This document shows positions 5,835 through 52,448 of a stretch of 64,000 nt of DNA, piece by piece. The notes beneath the pieces were generated by a model. It worked only from the letters and a program-made list of their open reading frames with translations. It searched no databases and had not been told where the DNA came from. Origin of the DNA: Clostridia bacterium (lineage in GTDB: Bacteria > Bacillota > Clostridia > TANB77 > UBA1234). The stretch spans positions 2,364-66,363 of the forward strand of contig CAAFRB010000058.1 of the NCBI GenBank assembly GCA_900765095.1, given 5' to 3'. Made by a program: the position numbers and the translations under genes. How positions within the stretch are numbered: the stretch's first letter is position 1; each line of letters opens with the position of its first letter.

Positions 5835-6374
5835 TTTTTCACCTCATCATTAAATTTAGTTAAATTTCAAAACTCTTACTAGCCACCACGTCAATCATTA
5901 CCCCAACTACGTTCAAGATGCACGCGAATGTCAATTATTTATTCATTTGTTTGGTATTAAAATAAATTTTTTAACATAAAAAGATTGTCAGTCAAATTAG
6001 GGTTGAAAACAAAGATTTTATTAAACGACAAAAAGGCAATTAGCTCGTCCTCAAAAAAGACGCCAATTACCTTTCTAATTTACGCATTAAATTCTTTATT
6101 ATTAACCGATAACCTTTTTATATTAATCAACCCTTACTTAATACATTATCGTTAAAGATTATAGCAGAATTTACATATATATGTCAATAGTTTGCGAACA
6201 TTTTCTTTTTACGTGTTATGTAAAGTACATTGCTGTTCAAGTTCTGTTTTTAATTCGTTTTTGGTGCTTTTCATAATTTACTTAATATTTCGCATAATCT
6301 GTGTAATTCTGTATTTATTTTATCATATTGAACTTTATTGGCAGTATTAATTTAGCAGAATGAATGTAAGAGTT

Positions 6375-7952
6375 TTATTTGTATATTTCATAGATCATTT
6401 TTGCTGTTTCTGCTCTTGTAATATCTTTTGTTGGTTTGAATGTGCCGTCTTCGTATCCGTTAATTATTTTCTTTTCACTTAGTTCTTTTATGTATTTGTA
6501 AGACCATGATGTTTTATCTATATCTTTGTAGTTTGGACATTCTTCTATGGCTACTTTTTCACTTGCTAGTTTACTTAATATTTTTGCTAACTCCTCGCGT
6601 GTTATGTACTTGTCTGCTCTAAATTCTCCGTTTTCGTATCCCTCTACAATGTTTAATTTACTTATTGCATTTATATATTTTTCTGCCCAATGTCCTTGGG
6701 TATCTTTATATATAGTTTCACCTTCTGCAGGAGTTAGTTCAAGTATTCTGCAGATTATTGTTGCTACTTCTCCTCTTGTTATTGAGCTTTCTGGCATGTA
6801 TAGTTCTTCTGTTCTTCCTATGATCCAGCTTTTTTCTTTCATGTATTTAATTGCTTTTTCTGCCCAGTGCCCATTCTCAATATCGCTGAATACTCTTGTT
6901 TCTTGCGATAAGTATTCTTCAAATATTTTCCAAATACTTTTTTCCTCCATTCCCAATCTCCATGTTCCTGTACCTTTTATGTCGTATTTACTTACTAGTT
7001 CTAGTTTTGCTTTTATGCTTTCTTCGTTTTCATACCAAATGGTGTATGTGCCTGGTTGTAATACTTTTCCGTATATTGTTGGCTTTGTTCCAACTGCACT
7101 GATGAATATTTCTGCCTGTGGTGTTTTTGTTTTTTCGTCGAATGTTACTTTGCCGTTTCGTGTTCTAATTAATTCTGCAACCGTTTCAAGCGAGACTGCT
7201 CTTCCTCCAGTTGTTGAGCCGTTTTTCCAGTAACGACCGTAAAGTGGTATTCCGAGTACTATTTTGTCTTTGTCCACTCTTTCCAATGCATATTGTATAG
7301 ATTTTTCTACAAATTCTATGCTTGCTACTGCTCCTGCTTCTCCGCCCTCGTAGTGTTCATCATAAGCCATTATCATTAGATAATCTGCATATTTAGATAG
7401 TGCTGTATAATCGTAAGATCCATGCCAGCCTGTTGTCCAACCATAAGGATTGGCTGCAACACTTACTACTACACTTTTTTCTTCTGGCAATTTTTCTCTT
7501 AACATTCTTACTAGGTCTGTGTAATCTGCTCTATCGCTTTCTGTAACATTTTCGATATCTACGTTGACACCATCTAGTCCATATTGTATGACGGCATTTG
7601 CTATGTCTGTCGCAATTTTTTCTCTATTTTTTAATGCTAATCTTCCTACTTCTCTATCCCAATGATTACTAAAGAATGGAACTATCTTTTGGTTTTGATT
7701 ATGTACTTCTATTATTAGATTTATATCGACTGTATTTAGTATCAGATTTCCTGTTGTGTCTATATCGAAATAACTTGGTGACACTTCATTTAATGTGTTT
7801 TCTGTTTGGTTAATCATTGATATGTAATTGCCACTTCCATATAGGTATGTCATGTTGTATCTTTGTGCCCCTACCTGGCTATACGATACTATAATTAATG
7901 TTATTGCCAACATTATAACGCAAACCGTGTAATATTTTTTCATATTCTCCAC
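6375..7952 (-). CDS. secreted glycoside hydrolase family 18 (chitinase-like / peptidoglycan hydrolase) with three C-terminal S-layer homology (SLH) domains
   Basis: Signal peptide; GH18 catalytic motif LDGVNVDIENV (DxxDxDxE); three repeats of the SLH pattern ..F.D....HWA...I.. Confidence 0.7.
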   Translation of the reverse strand: MENMKKYYTVCVIMLAITLIIVSYSQVGAQRYNMTYLYGSGNYISMINQTENTLNEVSPSYFDIDTTGNLILNTVDINLIIEVHNQNQKIVPFFSNHWDREVGRLALKNREKIATDIANAVIQYGLDGVNVDIENVTESDRADYTDLVRMLREKLPEEKSVVVSVAANPYGWTTGWHGSYDYTALSKYADYLMIMAYDEHYEGGEAGAVASIEFVEKSIQYALERVDKDKIVLGIPLYGRYWKNGSTTGGRAVSLETVAELIRTRNGKVTFDEKTKTPQAEIFISAVGTKPTIYGKVLQPGTYTIWYENEESIKAKLELVSKYDIKGTGTWRLGMEEKSIWKIFEEYLSQETRVFSDIENGHWAEKAIKYMKEKSWIIGRTEELYMPESSITRGEVATIICRILELTPAEGETIYKDTQGHWAEKYINAISKLNIVEGYENGEFRADKYITREELAKILSKLASEKVAIEECPNYKDIDKTSWSYKYIKELSEKKIINGYEDGTFKPTKDITRAETAKMIYEIYK

Positions 7953-27721: not shown

Positions 27722-27991
27722 ATGGTTTCTATGGTAAATAATATTGTAAACAAATTAAATTCTATAAATAATTTTTCTAAAAAAATAATTGTCGTAGCTT
27801 CTATTGTTTCTCTAATATTATGTGTTACTGGCACCGGTATAATTACATATAACGATAACGGTAGCTCAACAATGATGCTATACACGATAGGTTCTACAAT
27901 GATTTACACATCAATTGTATTATTTGCACAGTTTGTAATTGGTAGCCTTGTCATCGACTTTGTAAATACTTTAATTAATAATAAAGATTAA
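27722..27991 (+). CDS. small membrane protein (89 aa, 2 TM)
   Basis: RBS AGGAGA 8 nt upstream; sigma-A-like promoter TTGATT-N17-TGcTATAAT at 27669-27697. Confidence 0.4.
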   Translation: MVSMVNNIVNKLNSINNFSKKIIVVASIVSLILCVTGTGIITYNDNGSSTMMLYTIGSTMIYTSIVLFAQFVIGSLVIDFVNTLINNKD

Positions 27992-28830
27992 AAATTCGAC
28001 CTCATGTAATAAAACAGATATTGTTGTGCGATTCCTGCATGCTCTCCAAATTTGTGTTCTGCAAATGTGGAGATTTTTTTTATATCTTTTGACTCGTTAT
28101 AAAGCTGTGCCATGACCTTTTTAATCCATGTGTCTACCGGGAAAGCCTCTCCCTTTTTCATAGAGAAAAGTAATATGCAATCTGCTACCTTTGCACCAAC
28201 ACCTGGTATTTGCAGTAAATTACTTTTAGCTTCTTTGTAGCTCATTTTCTTTATCTCGCTTAAATTTATACCACCAGAGCACACCATTTGTGTAGCATTA
28301 TATACATATTTATCTCTAAAGCCTAGATTAAGACCTCTTAAGTCATCTATACTTGCCAAAGATAATTCTTCTGGAGTTGGGAATTTATAATATTCTTTTC
28401 CATTCCAACTTATTTTCTGCCCATATACCCTCGATATATTCTCAACAATCCTTGATATTCTCGGAATGTTATTTGCAGCAGATATTATAAAACTTATAAG
28501 CATTTCCCAAGGGTCTTGATTCAATATTCTAATTCCGTAACCATATTCAATTGCTTTCTTCATATTTAAGTCATTTTCTTGTAATTTTTCTTTTATTAAT
28601 GTGTAATCTGTTTTACAGTCAAAATAGTCCAGAATTTTATCTCTATCTTTTTCATCAAAATTTCCAGATATGATAACATCTTTATTTTCTTTCTTTATAT
28701 TAATAACTCCATATTTAATTACGCCTGTATAGCTTCCATCATTTTCTTTTTGCCACCTAAAACACTGTCCACATTCGAAAATGTGGACAGGTTCAAAGTC
28801 GCTTAAATTATTAAGTTTAATTATCGCCAT
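27988..28830 (-). CDS. HhH-GPD superfamily DNA glycosylase (Ogg/AlkA-like 8-oxoguanine or 3-methyladenine glycosylase)
   Basis: N-terminal CGQCFRW (Ogg-like); HhH-GPD segment ..LLQIPGVGAKVADCILLF..; catalytic Asp context ..FPVDTWI.. Confidence 0.7.
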   Translation of the reverse strand: MAIIKLNNLSDFEPVHIFECGQCFRWQKENDGSYTGVIKYGVINIKKENKDVIISGNFDEKDRDKILDYFDCKTDYTLIKEKLQENDLNMKKAIEYGYGIRILNQDPWEMLISFIISAANNIPRISRIVENISRVYGQKISWNGKEYYKFPTPEELSLASIDDLRGLNLGFRDKYVYNATQMVCSGGINLSEIKKMSYKEAKSNLLQIPGVGAKVADCILLFSMKKGEAFPVDTWIKKVMAQLYNESKDIKKISTFAEHKFGEHAGIAQQYLFYYMRSNF

Positions 28831-29389
28831 TTCTTCTCCTCAAATTACTATTCTCTCGCCGGTTCATCCTCTTTGCCCAACAATGGCCACACAATGGGAC
28901 ATATTCTTTATCGCCAATCAGAATGTCTTTATCCTTATTCCCAATGTGAAAAGAATGAGTAGCACTACCACACTTACAATCCACGCAAATAGCCTTCCTC
29001 TTATCTACAGAAGTAGCTATGCAGAGTAAATCACGCATGATAGCAAATGGTTTTCCTTCTGCTGTCATATCCAAGCCTGCAATGTAGAAATTCTTACCTT
29101 CATTTGCCAAATTTTGAATTATATGAATATCACCTTCTAGGAATTGAAATTCATCAATGAAGTAATCCTGTGCATCGTAAGACAAGATTTCGCTAAGATT
29201 AGAAATGCAAAAAGCCTCAATGCTTCCTGCGTTCCGACTCTTTATGGTGTCCTTTCCAAACCGTTCATCAATAACTGGTTTAAACGCAACTGTTTTTCTT
29301 CCAGCTATCATTGACCTCTCATACTCAGCAAGTAAAAAAGCAGTTTTCCTCGAAAACATTGGCCCCGTATACACCACAATCTCAGCCAT
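28817..29389 (-). CDS. tdk: thymidine kinase (TK1-type) with a zinc-ribbon lid; atypical Walker A (Gly->Arg)
   Basis: YTGPMFSRKTAFLL (canonical is GxMFSGKS); C-terminal CVDCKCG...CGHCW; RBS AAAGGAG 9 nt before ATG at 29389. Confidence 0.8.
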   Translation of the reverse strand: MAEIVVYTGPMFSRKTAFLLAEYERSMIAGRKTVAFKPVIDERFGKDTIKSRNAGSIEAFCISNLSEILSYDAQDYFIDEFQFLEGDIHIIQNLANEGKNFYIAGLDMTAEGKPFAIMRDLLCIATSVDKRKAICVDCKCGSATHSFHIGNKDKDILIGDKEYVPLCGHCWAKRMNRRENSNLRRRNGDN

Positions 29390-29538
29390 TACAAAAGCTC
29401 CTTTCACAGATTCTTTTTTATTTATCAACCATCAAATACTATATACAATAATTTTAAATTGTGCAATATATTTTTCAGTGGTATAATATGGAATAGCATT
29501 TGGAATGCTTAATATACAGCTTTTAGAAAGGAAAAAAT

Positions 29539-49100: not shown

Positions 49101-49865
49101 TTAAAGAGTTGTCAAAATTTCAGCACCATTTTTAGTTATCACAATTGTGTTCTCATAATGTGCTGACAATTTTCCGTCTTTTGTTAAAACAGTCCAGCCA
49201 TCTGGTTCTGTTATGATATCATAAGACCCTTCATTTATCATGGGTTCAACAGCAATAACCATGCCAGCTTCTAGCCTTGGACCTCTTCCACTTCTTCCAT
49301 AGTTTGGCACACCTGGATCTTCGTGCATATCTCTACCTATTCCATGTCCTTGATATTCTCTAACTACTGAAAAGCCATTTTTTTCCACGTATTCTTGAAT
49401 AGCATGAGATATATCCGATATCCTATTTCCTGGTTTAGCATATTTAATGCCTTCATAGAAGCTTTCTTTTGCAACTTCAATCAATCTCTGTGCTACCTCA
49501 GAACCTTCACCAACAACATAACACCTTGTTGCATCTCCAAAATATCCATCTTTGTCTGCAACTAAATCGACGCAAACTAAATCGCCATCTTTTATAACTC
49601 TATTGCCAGGTATTCCATGAATTACCTCGTCATTTACAGATATGCAACTTGCTGCAGGAAATGGATTCTTATATCCTTTTGGATAGCCCTTGCAAGATGG
49701 ATTAGCTCCATTTTCTCTAAACACTCTTTCTGTAATATCATCTATATCTTTTGTTGTCATACCAGCCCTTAAACTTTTTCCTATTTCTTCATGGGCTTTG
49801 GCAACAATTCTTGAAGCCTCTCTAATTTTTGCAATCTCTTTTTCAGAATAAATATTTATCATCAT
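49101..49865 (-). CDS. map: methionine aminopeptidase type I
   Basis: Metal ligands ..DLVCVDL.., ..HGIGR..HE.., ..AVEPMI.. Confidence 0.9.
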   Translation of the reverse strand: MMINIYSEKEIAKIREASRIVAKAHEEIGKSLRAGMTTKDIDDITERVFRENGANPSCKGYPKGYKNPFPAASCISVNDEVIHGIPGNRVIKDGDLVCVDLVADKDGYFGDATRCYVVGEGSEVAQRLIEVAKESFYEGIKYAKPGNRISDISHAIQEYVEKNGFSVVREYQGHGIGRDMHEDPGVPNYGRSGRGPRLEAGMVIAVEPMINEGSYDIITEPDGWTVLTKDGKLSAHYENTIVITKNGAEILTTL

Positions 49866-49930: not shown

Positions 49931-49959
49931 ATTATACCCTATTTTTTACATAAAAGCAA
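49931..49959 (-). promoter_or_regulatory. sigma-A promoter (TTGCTT-N17-TATAAT) for map
   Basis: Minus strand TTGCTTttatgtaaaaaatagggTATAAT. Confidence 0.45.
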
Positions 49960-49983
49960 GGTGGGAAACATAAGTTTCCCACC
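49945..49983 (-). terminator. intrinsic terminator downstream of the ThyX-like gene
   Basis: Minus RNA GGUGGGAAACUUAUGUUUCCCACC + UUGCUUUUAUGU. Confidence 0.65.
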
Positions 49984-50015
49984 CCCCAAAATAGTAAAAA
50001 TTGTAAAAGCTATAC

Positions 50016-51167
50016 TCAAATAATTCTATTCAATGCGCCTTTTCCGCCAAACATACATGGCGATTCACACTTCCAACCCGGAAAAGTACAACGTGCCCCT
50101 TTCGAATATGGTAGCAAATATTCGTAAAGCTCTGGTTTTTCTTTCACCGCTTCAAAATATTTTTTCATTGTGATGTTCGTCTGCTTCATTATTTCCAGCT
50201 GAGCACAACCACAAAGACGTTCAGTACACTTCAAGACAAAGTTTTCTATCGTTCCTCTCTCATTAACTCTAACCAGCATGCCTTGTGGGAACAAGTCTTC
50301 TATTGAATGCATATCACGAATCCATTCTTCCTCAAACCTTGTGGCTTTAATTATGTCTGGAACATAAAATTGTTTTTCATCCAACATAGACATTTCGTAA
50401 GTTAACGTCCTATGCCTTTGTGCTTGTGCAAGCTGAGCAAAACTGGCTAAATACGTAGTAGAATAGTTTTCACCGAATTCTTCGTATCTTTTATTCCTAT
50501 CCGAAAAAAGAGAAAATTTACGTTTTTTGATTTTAGAATTTAAGCCTTCAACTTCAATATTATACGTTTCAATGCTATGCAAAAATTCTTCCAATACCGA
50601 CTTTACTTTCAAAGCAAATCCATCATTTGCATCACTATCAATATAATCTCTCGCCCAACCTATTATATAATTAAGCTGCTCAAAGCTAACTGTATATTCC
50701 ATTACTGTGGATGGTGTAAAAATACTAATTAAATATCTTGCGTTTTCAAGTGCAAGTTTTTCAGCATATTTTTCTTTTATATCTGGATATTTTTCAAGAA
50801 TCAATCCTTTATATATATTAGCCCACTTTTCGTACAACTTACTTTCACGTTCACCAGGTACCATTTTAGTATACCTAGCGGACTTTTCAGATGTGTTGTA
50901 TATCTTTTCATTATTCAGAATCATTGCAAGTATTTTAGGAATCCCTTCAAAAAGTAAGTTGTAATGTGGATGACCAAACACGCTGTGATGTCCTAATTTT
51001 ATGTTGCTTTTCGCCCTTTTCAACGTTTTCTCCTCAGGTTCATTAAACAACTTTTCAGTAGTATCTGGCAGGTAACAGATACCAGCAGACTTGCCAGAGA
51101 AGATAATAGCTTCACTAGCAGGCATTTCATAACCAGGTTTGGTAGAAGCAAGGATTTTGACTTTCAT
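50016..51167 (-). CDS. ThyX-like (flavin-dependent thymidylate synthase family) protein with a duplicated/fused two-half architecture and Cys-rich C-tail
   Basis: N-half GHHSVFGHPHYNLLFEG (matches the ThyX GHESVxEH..FxIEG motif); C-half ..AQAQRHRTLTYEMS.. (ThyX RHRxxSY.E.S motif) and ..NERGTIENFVLKCTERLCGCAQLEI.. (ThyX C-terminal helix); own promoter and terminator. Confidence 0.5.
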   Translation of the reverse strand: MKVKILASTKPGYEMPASEAIIFSGKSAGICYLPDTTEKLFNEPEEKTLKRAKSNIKLGHHSVFGHPHYNLLFEGIPKILAMILNNEKIYNTSEKSARYTKMVPGERESKLYEKWANIYKGLILEKYPDIKEKYAEKLALENARYLISIFTPSTVMEYTVSFEQLNYIIGWARDYIDSDANDGFALKVKSVLEEFLHSIETYNIEVEGLNSKIKKRKFSLFSDRNKRYEEFGENYSTTYLASFAQLAQAQRHRTLTYEMSMLDEKQFYVPDIIKATRFEEEWIRDMHSIEDLFPQGMLVRVNERGTIENFVLKCTERLCGCAQLEIMKQTNITMKKYFEAVKEKPELYEYLLPYSKGARCTFPGWKCESPCMFGGKGALNRII

Positions 51168-51237
51168 AGAGCACTTCTCCTTTCACATTCATAAATGTAG
51201 TCACATTTTGTTATTTACCTATTCAATTTTCTTCTGA

Positions 51238-51266
51238 ATTATATCAATTTACTACCCAAAAAGCAA
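51238..51266 (-). promoter_or_regulatory. sigma-A promoter (TTGCTT-N17-TATAAT) for the ThyX-like gene
   Basis: Minus strand TTGCTTtttgggtagtaaattgaTATAAT. Confidence 0.5.
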
Positions 51267-51278
51267 CAAAAAGTGACA

Positions 51279-51330
51279 CATAAAAAAGCTATCATCATAA
51301 GTATTTCTATTTACTTAAAATGATAGTCTT
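51279..51330 (-). terminator. intrinsic terminator downstream of adk
   Basis: Minus RNA AAGACUAUCAU-21 nt loop-AUGAUGAUAGCUU + U6AUG. Confidence 0.5.
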
Positions 51331-51335
51331 AAACA

Positions 51336-51992
51336 TTATTTTTCAAGTTCTGCTTTAACAAGAGCAATTGTATCCGCTAATTCCTCTTGTCCAACAACTG
51401 TAGCAACTAAACCTTTCTTAGTATAGTAATCTATTAAAGGTTCAGTTTGTGAATGATAAACTGCAAGTCTGTTACTTACTGTAGCTTCATTATCATCATC
51501 TCTTTGGAATAGTCTGCTACCACATTTATCACAAACACCTTCAACCTTAGGAGGATTATCCCTTAAATTATATATTTCTTTACAATCAGGATTTTCACAA
51601 GTTCTTCTATTTATTGTTCTTGCCATTATTTCTTCATCTGGTACATGTAAATTTATTACTTTGTCCAACTTAATTCCATTAGCATCAAGATATTCATCAA
51701 GAACTTCTGCTTGATGTAATGTTCTTGGAAAACCGTCTAATAAGAATCCGTTTTCTTTACAATCAGCTTCTTCTAATCTTGACTTTAATAAATCAACAAC
51801 CAATTCATCTGGAACTAATTTTCCTTCGTCCATGTACTTTTTAGCTTCCATTCCTAAAGCTGTCCCTTCAGCAATATTTTTTCTAAAAATATCACCAGTT
51901 GATATATGAGGAACATTATAGTCCTTTGTTATCCATTTACATTGTGATCCTTTTCCACTTCCTGGTGCTCCTAATATTATAAATCTTTTCAT
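51336..51992 (-). CDS. adk: adenylate kinase (zinc-lid type)
   Basis: MKRFIILGAPGSGKGSQC..; lid C..C..C..C. Confidence 0.95.
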   Translation of the reverse strand: MKRFIILGAPGSGKGSQCKWITKDYNVPHISTGDIFRKNIAEGTALGMEAKKYMDEGKLVPDELVVDLLKSRLEEADCKENGFLLDGFPRTLHQAEVLDEYLDANGIKLDKVINLHVPDEEIMARTINRRTCENPDCKEIYNLRDNPPKVEGVCDKCGSRLFQRDDDNEATVSNRLAVYHSQTEPLIDYYTKKGLVATVVGQEELADTIALVKAELEK

Positions 51993-52031: not shown

Positions 52032-52412
52032 CTAATCGCCACTAACACTACTCAAGTTGCCCGATTCATTATTTCTTTCATCAACTTTTGTATTGTTTTC
52101 ATCTATATTTTTCACTGAAGCATCTCCACTTATTTTTTCTACATCTTGGTGGTTTTCATCTTTCTTATCTTCGTCACCGCTTGCACTGTCATCTACATCT
52201 CCACTTGAATTTTGCTCGCCACTTTCAACGTTTTCATACTCACCGCTCAAATCTGATTTTTCATTATCACCGGATATTCTTTCTATAACATCTCCTGAAA
52301 TATTATTTGCATTTCCATTATAAATGTTATTTTGATCTCTTAAAAATGTATAAACAAAAATTAATACAGCAACAATTATCACGCACATTAAAAATCTCAA
52401 AAACTCTTTCAT
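52032..52412 (-). CDS. small signal-anchored protein with acidic, SGD-repeat low-complexity tail, inserted between secY and adk
   Basis: MKEFLRFLMCVIIVAVLIFVYTF then ISGDV..ISGDN..SGEYE..SGDVDD..SGDED..ISGDAS; promoter TTGATA-N17-TATACT at 52449-52477; RBS AAGGAGG. Confidence 0.5.
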   Translation of the reverse strand: MKEFLRFLMCVIIVAVLIFVYTFLRDQNNIYNGNANNISGDVIERISGDNEKSDLSGEYENVESGEQNSSGDVDDSASGDEDKKDENHQDVEKISGDASVKNIDENNTKVDERNNESGNLSSVSGD

Positions 52413-52448
52413 TGCAACATTTTCCTCCTTTATTTTCAATCCAAATTT

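Follow-up and report, generated by a model that had tools for sequence, protein, structure and literature searches.

What kind of enzyme is encoded by the open reading frame (ORF) that lies between adk and map in a stretch of DNA from an uncultured Clostridia bacterium? The stretch, referred to here as the window, comprises 64,000 nucleotides of contig CAAFRB010000058.1. The ORF occupies positions 50016..51167 on the minus strand (as do all features of this gene given below), starts with ATG, and encodes 383 amino acids. A preliminary description had read the product as two halves of the thymidylate synthase ThyX joined in tandem, each half keeping a complementary subset of the catalytic residues. 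We found that the protein joins two ThyX domains whose losses complement each other, that it has a conserved cysteine site, and that it belongs to a large, uncharacterised family. We think it probable that the protein is a flavin-dependent thymidylate synthase of the ThyX superfamily in which two fused ThyX folds have undergone complementary active-site loss.

We found that the whole protein scored above the Pfam gathering threshold for the Thy1 superfamily (PF02511; 45.5 bits against a cut-off of 24.8; E, 9.7e-12). Two stretches matched, and the better one aligned residues 26-149 with profile positions 15-143 of 191. The protein did not reach the cut-off of the NCBIfam thyX equivalog TIGR02170 (28.4 against 87.9 bits), which matched only residues 27-116. 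A search of the PDB sequences returned a marginal match of residues 54-150 to Helicobacter pylori ThyX (E, 0.013), and BLASTP of Thermotoga maritima ThyX against the protein gave weak local matches only. With the family profile, no ThyX was found among the PDB sequences at an E value below 1; the matches that were returned were discarded as spurious coiled-coil designs sharing "QRHR." The Pfam match together with the low equivalog score and the marginal PDB match indicates that the protein genuinely belongs to the ThyX superfamily but has diverged very far. The family is already labelled ThyX, loosely, in databases, where members that carry a name are called "FAD-dependent thymidylate synthase," "thymidylate synthase ThyX," or "hypothetical protein" (FAD, flavin adenine dinucleotide), and the gene is not a one-off.

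We examined the two halves separately. Pfam Thy1 matched the N-terminal half alone with 38.6 bits (residues 26-149 to profile positions 15-143). When a 74-sequence profile of this half was compared by HHalign with canonical ThyX, residues 1-205 aligned with residues 1-211 over 194 columns (probability, 95.4%; E, 5.9e-9). The canonical alignment was headed by T. maritima ThyX, in a sequence 100% identical to the PDB chain. Judged by these sequence comparisons, the N-terminal half is a complete ThyX domain (N-domain, residues 1 to about 202; 50562..51167).

The C-domain (residues 203-355; 50103..50561) appears to be a truncated ThyX fold. In the profile alignment, it starts at the strand preceding the RHR helix and is without the N-terminal strands, the His motif, most of the helical insert, and the Ser/Arg loop. 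Its local alignment to canonical ThyX is colinear over 145 columns and runs through a strand, the RHR helix, EFYVP, a second strand, and the helix of R174 and AQxEI. It pairs RHR with RHR, Q with Q75, EFYVP with EFYIP, R317 with R174, and AQLEI with AQWEI. The full-length AlphaFold2 model (predicted local distance difference test score [pLDDT], 91.5; predicted template modeling score, 0.90) has the three-dimensional fold of the Thy1 superfamily. These data support the view that both halves have a ThyX fold, the N-terminal half by sequence and the C-terminal half by predicted structure.

Three results weigh against a second ThyX domain. The C-terminal half alone had no Pfam match at an E value of 1 or below; its local alignment to canonical ThyX was statistically weak (probability, 13%; E, 2e-3), with no significant standalone match; and the profiles of the N- and C-terminal halves showed no similarity to each other (probability, 0.7%). 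The two-domain claim therefore rests on predicted structure and motif colinearity, and an internal duplication can be read from the fold only, not from sequence. The same unmatched C-terminal half and dissimilar profiles, along with a strong Pfam match confined to residues 26-149, would fit a lone ThyX domain split by a large insertion in which an RHR tripeptide occurs by chance. We rejected this reading, which we consider scarcely credible: the N-terminal half spans the whole canonical domain from end to end, the C-terminal half follows the canonical order of strands, helices, and motifs, and the predicted-structure comparison contradicts it. Thus, the two ThyX halves of the preliminary description were borne out. 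It had asked whether Pfam would report two domain matches, and a single weak match or none was to speak against it. Two stretches did match in the whole protein, but at the sequence level half of that objection stands, since the C-terminal half alone went unmatched.

To follow individual residues, we used the profile alignments of each half to T. maritima ThyX for equivalences and two sets of relatives for conservation. One set is an alignment of 74 sequences that are 42-85% identical to the query, and the other comprises 170 representatives drawn at the 50% clustering level. The motifs present are GHHSVFGH (59-66), NNE(K) (85-88), SEKSARY (93-99), QAQRHR (248-253), and ERLCGCAQLEI (316-326). 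The N-domain keeps equivalents of eight T. maritima residues, namely, H60 (H53), S62 (T55), H66 (H59), E94 (E86), S96 (S88), R98 (R90), Y99 (Y91), and R144 (R147). H60, S62, and H66 lie in the His motif G59-H60-H61-S62-V63-F64-G65-H66 (50970..50993), which corresponds to H53...H59; they are invariant in the 74 sequences and occur in 169, 162, and 167 of the 170 representatives, respectively. The substrate loop S93-E94-K95-S96-A97-R98-Y99 (50871..50891) supplies the counterparts of E86, S88, R90, and Y91, and E94, S96, and R98 are invariant. The pLDDT dips to 57 at residues 91-100, which coincides with the loop that is mobile in ThyX (PMC3498832).

We found that the N-domain has lost the remaining residues. 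I83 stands in place of Q75, and a nonconserved A172 stands in place of R174. In the HHalign alignment, N85-N86-E87-K88 (50904..50915) takes the place of RHR. N85, N86, and E87 are present in 74, 70, and 73 of the 74 sequences; because N85-N86-E87 is itself conserved, this segment is under selection and not decaying. The preliminary description had placed NNE at the RHR position. We confirmed that a conserved N-N-E-K replaces RHR, but the profile sets N86-E87-K88, not N85-N86-E87, opposite R78-H79-R80.

The C-domain retains what the N-domain lacks. It keeps Q248 (Q75), R251-H252-R253 (R78-R80), the EFYVP block, E316-R317 (R174), and A322-Q323-x-E325 (AQxE). In Q248-A-Q-R251-H252-R253 (50409..50426), the four named residues are invariant in the 74 sequences and present in 158-167 of the 170 representatives. 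In the active-site helix E316-R317-L-C319-G-C-A322-Q323-L-E325-I (50190..50222), R317 is found in 168 representatives and both C319 and E325 are found in all 170. The segment after RHR is not conserved, and there is no His motif. Of the "RHRxxSY.E.S" signature claimed earlier for this half, the RHR part, together with Q248, is therefore conserved, but the Ser/Arg/Tyr part is not.

Neither domain carries a contiguous RHRxxxxxxS(x)RY motif: the N-domain has N-E-K followed by S96-x-R98-Y99, and the C-domain has R251-H252-R253 without a conserved Ser, Arg, or Tyr. In the whole protein, however, the full set of residues for FAD and deoxyuridine monophosphate (dUMP), which consists of Q75, R78, H79, R80, E86, S88, R90, Y91, R147, and R174, is present, spread over both domains, and near-invariant among the 170 representatives. 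The ratio of nonsynonymous to synonymous substitution rates (dN/dS) was about 0.11 against relatives at 66-70% identity, at which dS is saturated. The profile alignments and the conservation in both sets thus uphold the claim that the halves carry complementary catalytic subsets.

How could two degenerate domains form one active site? In the ThyX of Paramecium bursaria chlorella virus 1 (PBCV-1), monomer A contributes FAD, Gln75, and Arg182 to the uracil pocket, and monomer B contributes Ser88/Gln89 (PMC3498832). R174 of ThyX activates dUMP, and S88, R90, and Y91 are required for the methylene-transfer step (PMC8316439). The split of residues between our two domains matches this monomer-by-monomer supply, which is the pattern expected of a covalent pseudo-heterodimer. 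By analogy, the C-domain would thus play monomer A and the N-domain monomer B. The pseudo-dimer proposed in the preliminary description is well supported by this match.

According to this model, a single chain arose by fusion of two ThyX-fold domains, each of which may then have lost the part of the active site that the other retained. The C-domain would hold FAD and the uracil ring through Q248, R251-R253, and R317, and the N-domain would provide the mobile substrate loop (E94, S96, R98, and Y99), R144, and the His motif (H60, S62, and H66). One N/C pair would make one complete composite active site, and the reciprocal site would be dead. The contact between the two domains would reproduce the native dimer interface, and two chains would pair as a pseudo-tetramer in which only two of the four sites are active.

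We also found conserved cysteines. The C-terminal tail (50055..50090) contains C360-x6-C367-x3-C371, which we list with C319 and C31 as a candidate metal site. C319, two residues after the catalytic R317, is present in all 170 representatives, followed by C367 (169), C371 (168), C31 (168), and C360 (161); 159 representatives have all five. C31 lies in the first long helix of the N-domain. C314 and C321 are variable, and the near-terminal R381 is also conserved. The preliminary description had noted a Cys-rich tail, CGC..C..C..C; C319, C360, C367, and C371 proved to be conserved, but C321 did not, and the fifth conserved cysteine, C31, is in the N-domain. C360 is conserved in the bacterial members. 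In a clade on viral contigs (L021-L025), it is absent, whereas C31, C319, C367, and C371 are kept, so these four form the core set. The four conserved cysteines lie in three segments far apart in the chain, which suggests that a metal site holds the tail, the C-domain, and the N-domain together beside the active-site R317. Either a structural zinc or an iron-sulfur cluster may occupy this site. A further possibility, which we hold to be quite unlikely, is that an iron-sulfur cluster bound by C31, C319, C367, and C371, plus C360, passes electrons from ferredoxin or flavodoxin to FAD. In that case, the enzyme would work independently of pyridine nucleotides and be a covalently asymmetric thymidylate synthase, with two sites in each pseudo-tetramer, common to strictly anaerobic gut Clostridia and their large phages.

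We compared the protein with known systems. Canonical ThyX (EC 2.1.1.148; T. maritima TM0449 and the H. pylori, Mycobacterium tuberculosis, and PBCV-1 enzymes) shares its fold with both halves, and its catalytic residues are all found in the whole fused protein. Its homotetramer, which has four FAD and four active sites, builds each site from residues of different monomers, and the active site of the fused protein is likewise expected at a domain interface. The canonical reaction, from deoxyuridine to deoxythymidine monophosphate, depends on FAD, CH2-H4folate, and NAD(P)H. The two differ in that canonical ThyX consists of four identical chains of about 220 amino acids, whereas here one chain of 383 amino acids holds two nonidentical ThyX folds. 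In canonical ThyX, the RHR...S.RY motif is contiguous; here, RHR is in the C-domain and S.RY is in the N-domain. In addition, the C-domain is truncated, conserved cysteines have been added, half as many active sites are expected, and the score lies below the thyX equivalog cut-off.

A closer architectural match is the "putative thymidylate synthase" of Microcystis phage Ma-LMM01 (BAF36111; 491 amino acids; PHROG 36506; locus L020, 15717-17192, minus strand). Foldseek aligned it over the full length (E, 2.4e-11; query template modeling score, 0.63; 481 columns). It also aligned other long phage ThyX-like proteins, including the "thymidylate synthetase" of Bacillus phage SP-15 (413 amino acids). 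The Ma-LMM01 protein is split like ours, with two ThyX folds per chain and RHR only in the second. Its N-terminal half is without RHR but has ERSTRY, its C-terminal half has NRHRS, and Pfam matches the N-terminal half only. Against the N-half profile of the family, its N-terminal half aligned with a probability of 85%, with ERSTRYQKM opposite EKSARYTKM. It differs in having about 13% sequence identity and no cysteine tail. At 13% identity, the two share an architecture, not a demonstrated subfamily; the occurrence of the same split in Ma-LMM01 indicates that the architecture is older and wider than the Clostridia family. We found no biochemical characterisation of long phage ThyX-like proteins in the searchable literature and no description of a tandem or fused ThyX architecture in open-access texts. 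PolB, the C5-methylase of uridine monophosphate (UMP) and dUMP in polyoxin biosynthesis (PDB 4p5a), is a single-domain homo-oligomer encoded inside a nucleoside-antibiotic cluster; no such cluster surrounds our gene.

The family is large. A word-indexed search with the query returned 4,835 relatives at an E value of 1e-3 or below, and all 120 that were listed are 380-388 amino acids long. A search seeded with the protein of locus L010 (44% identity) listed relatives of 372-443 amino acids. An exhaustive search of 50%-identity representatives gave 644 clusters at 1e-3 or below, of which 328 were at 1e-30 or below. The full-length cluster members are mostly 380-420 amino acids long; canonical ThyX is so remote that this search does not recover it in bulk. 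One member has 529 amino acids, a length that suggested the ThyX of Chlamydia, but it has a metagenome source only. The family is found in uncultured Clostridia sampled from the human gut, the goat, and other animals.

Nine members (35-44% identity; L021-L029) are on IMG/VR contigs of 45-268 kb, and all nine keep the catalytic residues. Their neighbours are codirectional ORFans, a helicase, and an exonuclease, and the contigs look like those of large phages. Thymidylate synthases are common in phages (PMC7824862). A tblastn search of the query against the GenBank phage collection (50,697 records) gave no match.

What, then, does the protein make? Its complete and conserved FAD and dUMP residues, its housekeeping context, and its phage copies make conversion of dUMP to deoxythymidine monophosphate (dTMP) the most likely activity. 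We judge it probable that this protein supplies dTMP in the gut Clostridium. We found neither thyA nor a canonical thyX within the 64-kb window by tblastn with Escherichia coli ThyA and T. maritima ThyX. Several points weigh on the other side. The shortfall against the thyX equivalog and the absence of a PDB profile match have been given above, and the extra cysteines and the conserved N-N-E-K, which are without counterpart in characterised ThyX, could signal a different chemistry. A thymidine kinase gene is also present in the window, so the organism can salvage thymidine and de novo dTMP synthesis need not be essential. That gene, tdk (28817-29428, minus strand), overlaps by 14 nucleotides the start of a gene for an OGG-type 8-oxoguanine glycosylase (27988-28830, minus strand).

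The main rival, which we consider unlikely, is a neofunctionalised ThyX-like enzyme that makes another C5-modified pyrimidine or acts on nucleic acid, with the metal site serving the altered chemistry. Candidate products are 5-hydroxymethyl-dUMP or methylated UMP, cytidine monophosphate (CMP), or dCMP, as for PolB or the proposed hydroxymethyluridylate synthase of phage SP-15. The divergence of the family and its novel conserved residues would fit such an enzyme, phages that carry modified bases, SP-15 among them, encode long ThyX-like proteins (PMC5977210), and substrate-changed ThyX paralogues are known (PMC5954106). However, all residues known to bind or activate dUMP are kept; the gene stands alone among housekeeping genes, outside any modification, antibiotic, or DNA modification cluster; and it is broadly and tightly conserved in the chromosomes of many Clostridia, as expected for a core function. 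We consider it very unlikely that the protein is a catalytically dead ThyX derivative, such as a nucleotide- or flavin-binding regulator or scaffold. Neither domain is complete by itself and tdk is nearby in the genome, which would fit a dead enzyme, but the complementary catalytic residues hardly vary even among sequences at about 35-40% identity, viral copies included, which would be unexpected if catalysis had been lost. We therefore favour a thymidylate synthase.

The gene is flanked by adk (51336-51992) and map (49101-49865), and the minus-strand order in the window is rplO-secY-orf135-adk-X-map-KOW-infA-rpsM-rpsK-rpsD-rpoA-rplQ, where X is the ThyX-like gene. The adk-X-map order recurs in the closest relative, locus L004 (81% identity), and was not seen in the other loci compared (L001-L003 and L005-L019). 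The insertion between adk and map noted in the preliminary description thus holds for the window lineage and its nearest relative but not for those other loci. In L004, a 1-nucleotide insertion at codons 319/320 (5957-5959), at the invariant Cys319, shifts the frame (TTTGCCGGTTGT versus TTTGTGGTTGT). An error in the metagenome assembly is likelier than a pseudogene, because an intact 81%-identical protein (P0003) is in the protein collection. An extra ORF of 135 amino acids lies between secY and adk (52032-52439, minus strand) and has a counterpart in L004 (41% identity). In its product, a hydrophobic N-terminal segment is followed by an acidic low-complexity tail rich in Ser, Asp, and Glu. 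The ORF gives only a subthreshold match to DUF7502 and is a second lineage-specific gene in a normally tight secY-adk junction.

Elsewhere, the ThyX-like gene has other housekeeping neighbours. It is directly 5' of the S10 operon in L014, 1.7-2.7 kb past rplQ in L008 and L005, next to plsX-acpP-rnc in L011-L013, close to rpsO-pnp in L018, and flanked by aspS and comEC in L019. In L017, it is beside a tadA-like deaminase gene near rpsB-tsf, and the deaminase also occurs in L010. We considered whether the deaminase upstream in L010 and L017 was a dCMP deaminase, but its motifs read as TadA instead. The upstream neighbours of 188-190 amino acids in L012 and L014 were ruled out as a conserved partner because they are unrelated to each other. 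The one in L014 (7131-7703, minus strand) is a 190-amino-acid P-loop protein (IIIVEGPQGTGKTT...) encoded divergently from the ThyX-like gene; it has only subthreshold kinase or AAA matches, including thymidylate kinase (E, 0.035), which are too weak to serve as a functional link. Among the loci examined, we found no conserved operon partner and no linked nucleoside-antibiotic, base modification, or other biosynthetic cluster, and the neighbours were housekeeping genes at every locus. The GC content of the gene equals that of its flanks, with no sign of foreign composition. We concluded that the ThyX-like gene is a free-standing, housekeeping-type gene that has been repeatedly relocated, in many cases close to the ribosomal-protein cluster.

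The gene appears to be its own transcription unit. The terminator claimed earlier was confirmed as a strong intrinsic terminator 3' of the gene (49948..49985), with a 12-bp stem containing 6 G-C pairs and a loop of 4 at 49985-49958 and then a T-rich tail. RNA folding showed a hairpin and U tract directly after adk (51280..51330), likely the adk terminator, and the same hairpin follows adk in L004. The promoter proposed at 51238..51266 (TTGCTT-17-TATAAT with TG at -15/-14) is legible in the sequence, and its TGnTATAAT block is kept in L004, but a consensus promoter scan did not flag it and its -35 hexamer agrees at only 3 of 6 positions. The gene's own terminator, its plausible promoter, and the conserved hairpin after adk together support the separate transcription unit proposed in the preliminary description. 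The gene would be expressed from its own promoter, and its transcript would end at its own terminator.

The leader contains a palindrome, AAATGTAGTCACATTT (AAATGT-AGTC-ACATTT; window 51193-51208), between the -10 element and the ribosome-binding site. Its counterpart in the 5' untranslated region of L004 (4954-4969) is a perfect 16-bp palindrome, AAATGTAATTACATTT. The palindrome may act as an operator or form a small leader hairpin; it was not found upstream of the gene in loci other than L004, and it occurs in the window about as often as chance predicts. No riboswitch or known RNA was matched by Rfam from 46 to 56 kb of the window. Directly past the terminator of the ThyX-like gene and 5' of map, a second TTGCTT-17-TATAAT (49931-49959, minus strand) has hexamers and spacing identical to those of the putative ThyX-like gene promoter, and map thus appears to restart transcription on its own.

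Two other features of the window are recorded here. A RecD2-type helicase is split over adjacent ORFs on the minus strand, one of 527 amino acids (17433-19016) with OB, HHH, and AAA_30 domains and one of 188 amino acids (16838-17404) with SH3_13 and UvrD_C_2; the split might reflect a frameshift, a pseudogene, or a sequencing error. At 12318-15010 (minus strand), a 675-amino-acid KAP-family P-loop NTPase is followed by a 215-amino-acid protein with a phosphoribosyltransferase domain. The two lie among S-layer-homology proteins (6375-7952, with GH18, and 15178-16824) and are a possible defence-type gene pair.

ThyX, an antibacterial drug target, is the textbook case of an active site shared by identical subunits. 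Here, nature has fixed the roles of the partners in separate domains of one fused chain, which dissects the shared site without mutagenesis and would show which protomer supplies which residues. As the fusion implies, two sites per particle would suffice. Because the equivalog misses the family and the Pfam match covers only a third of the protein, dTMP synthesis may be mis-scored when the metabolism of many uncultured gut and rumen Clostridia is reconstructed. The cysteine site beside the catalytic arginine is new for ThyX and, if redox active, would bear on the physiological reductant of ThyX in anaerobes. Finally, the family members encoded on large viral contigs point to exchange of the enzyme between phages and their hosts.

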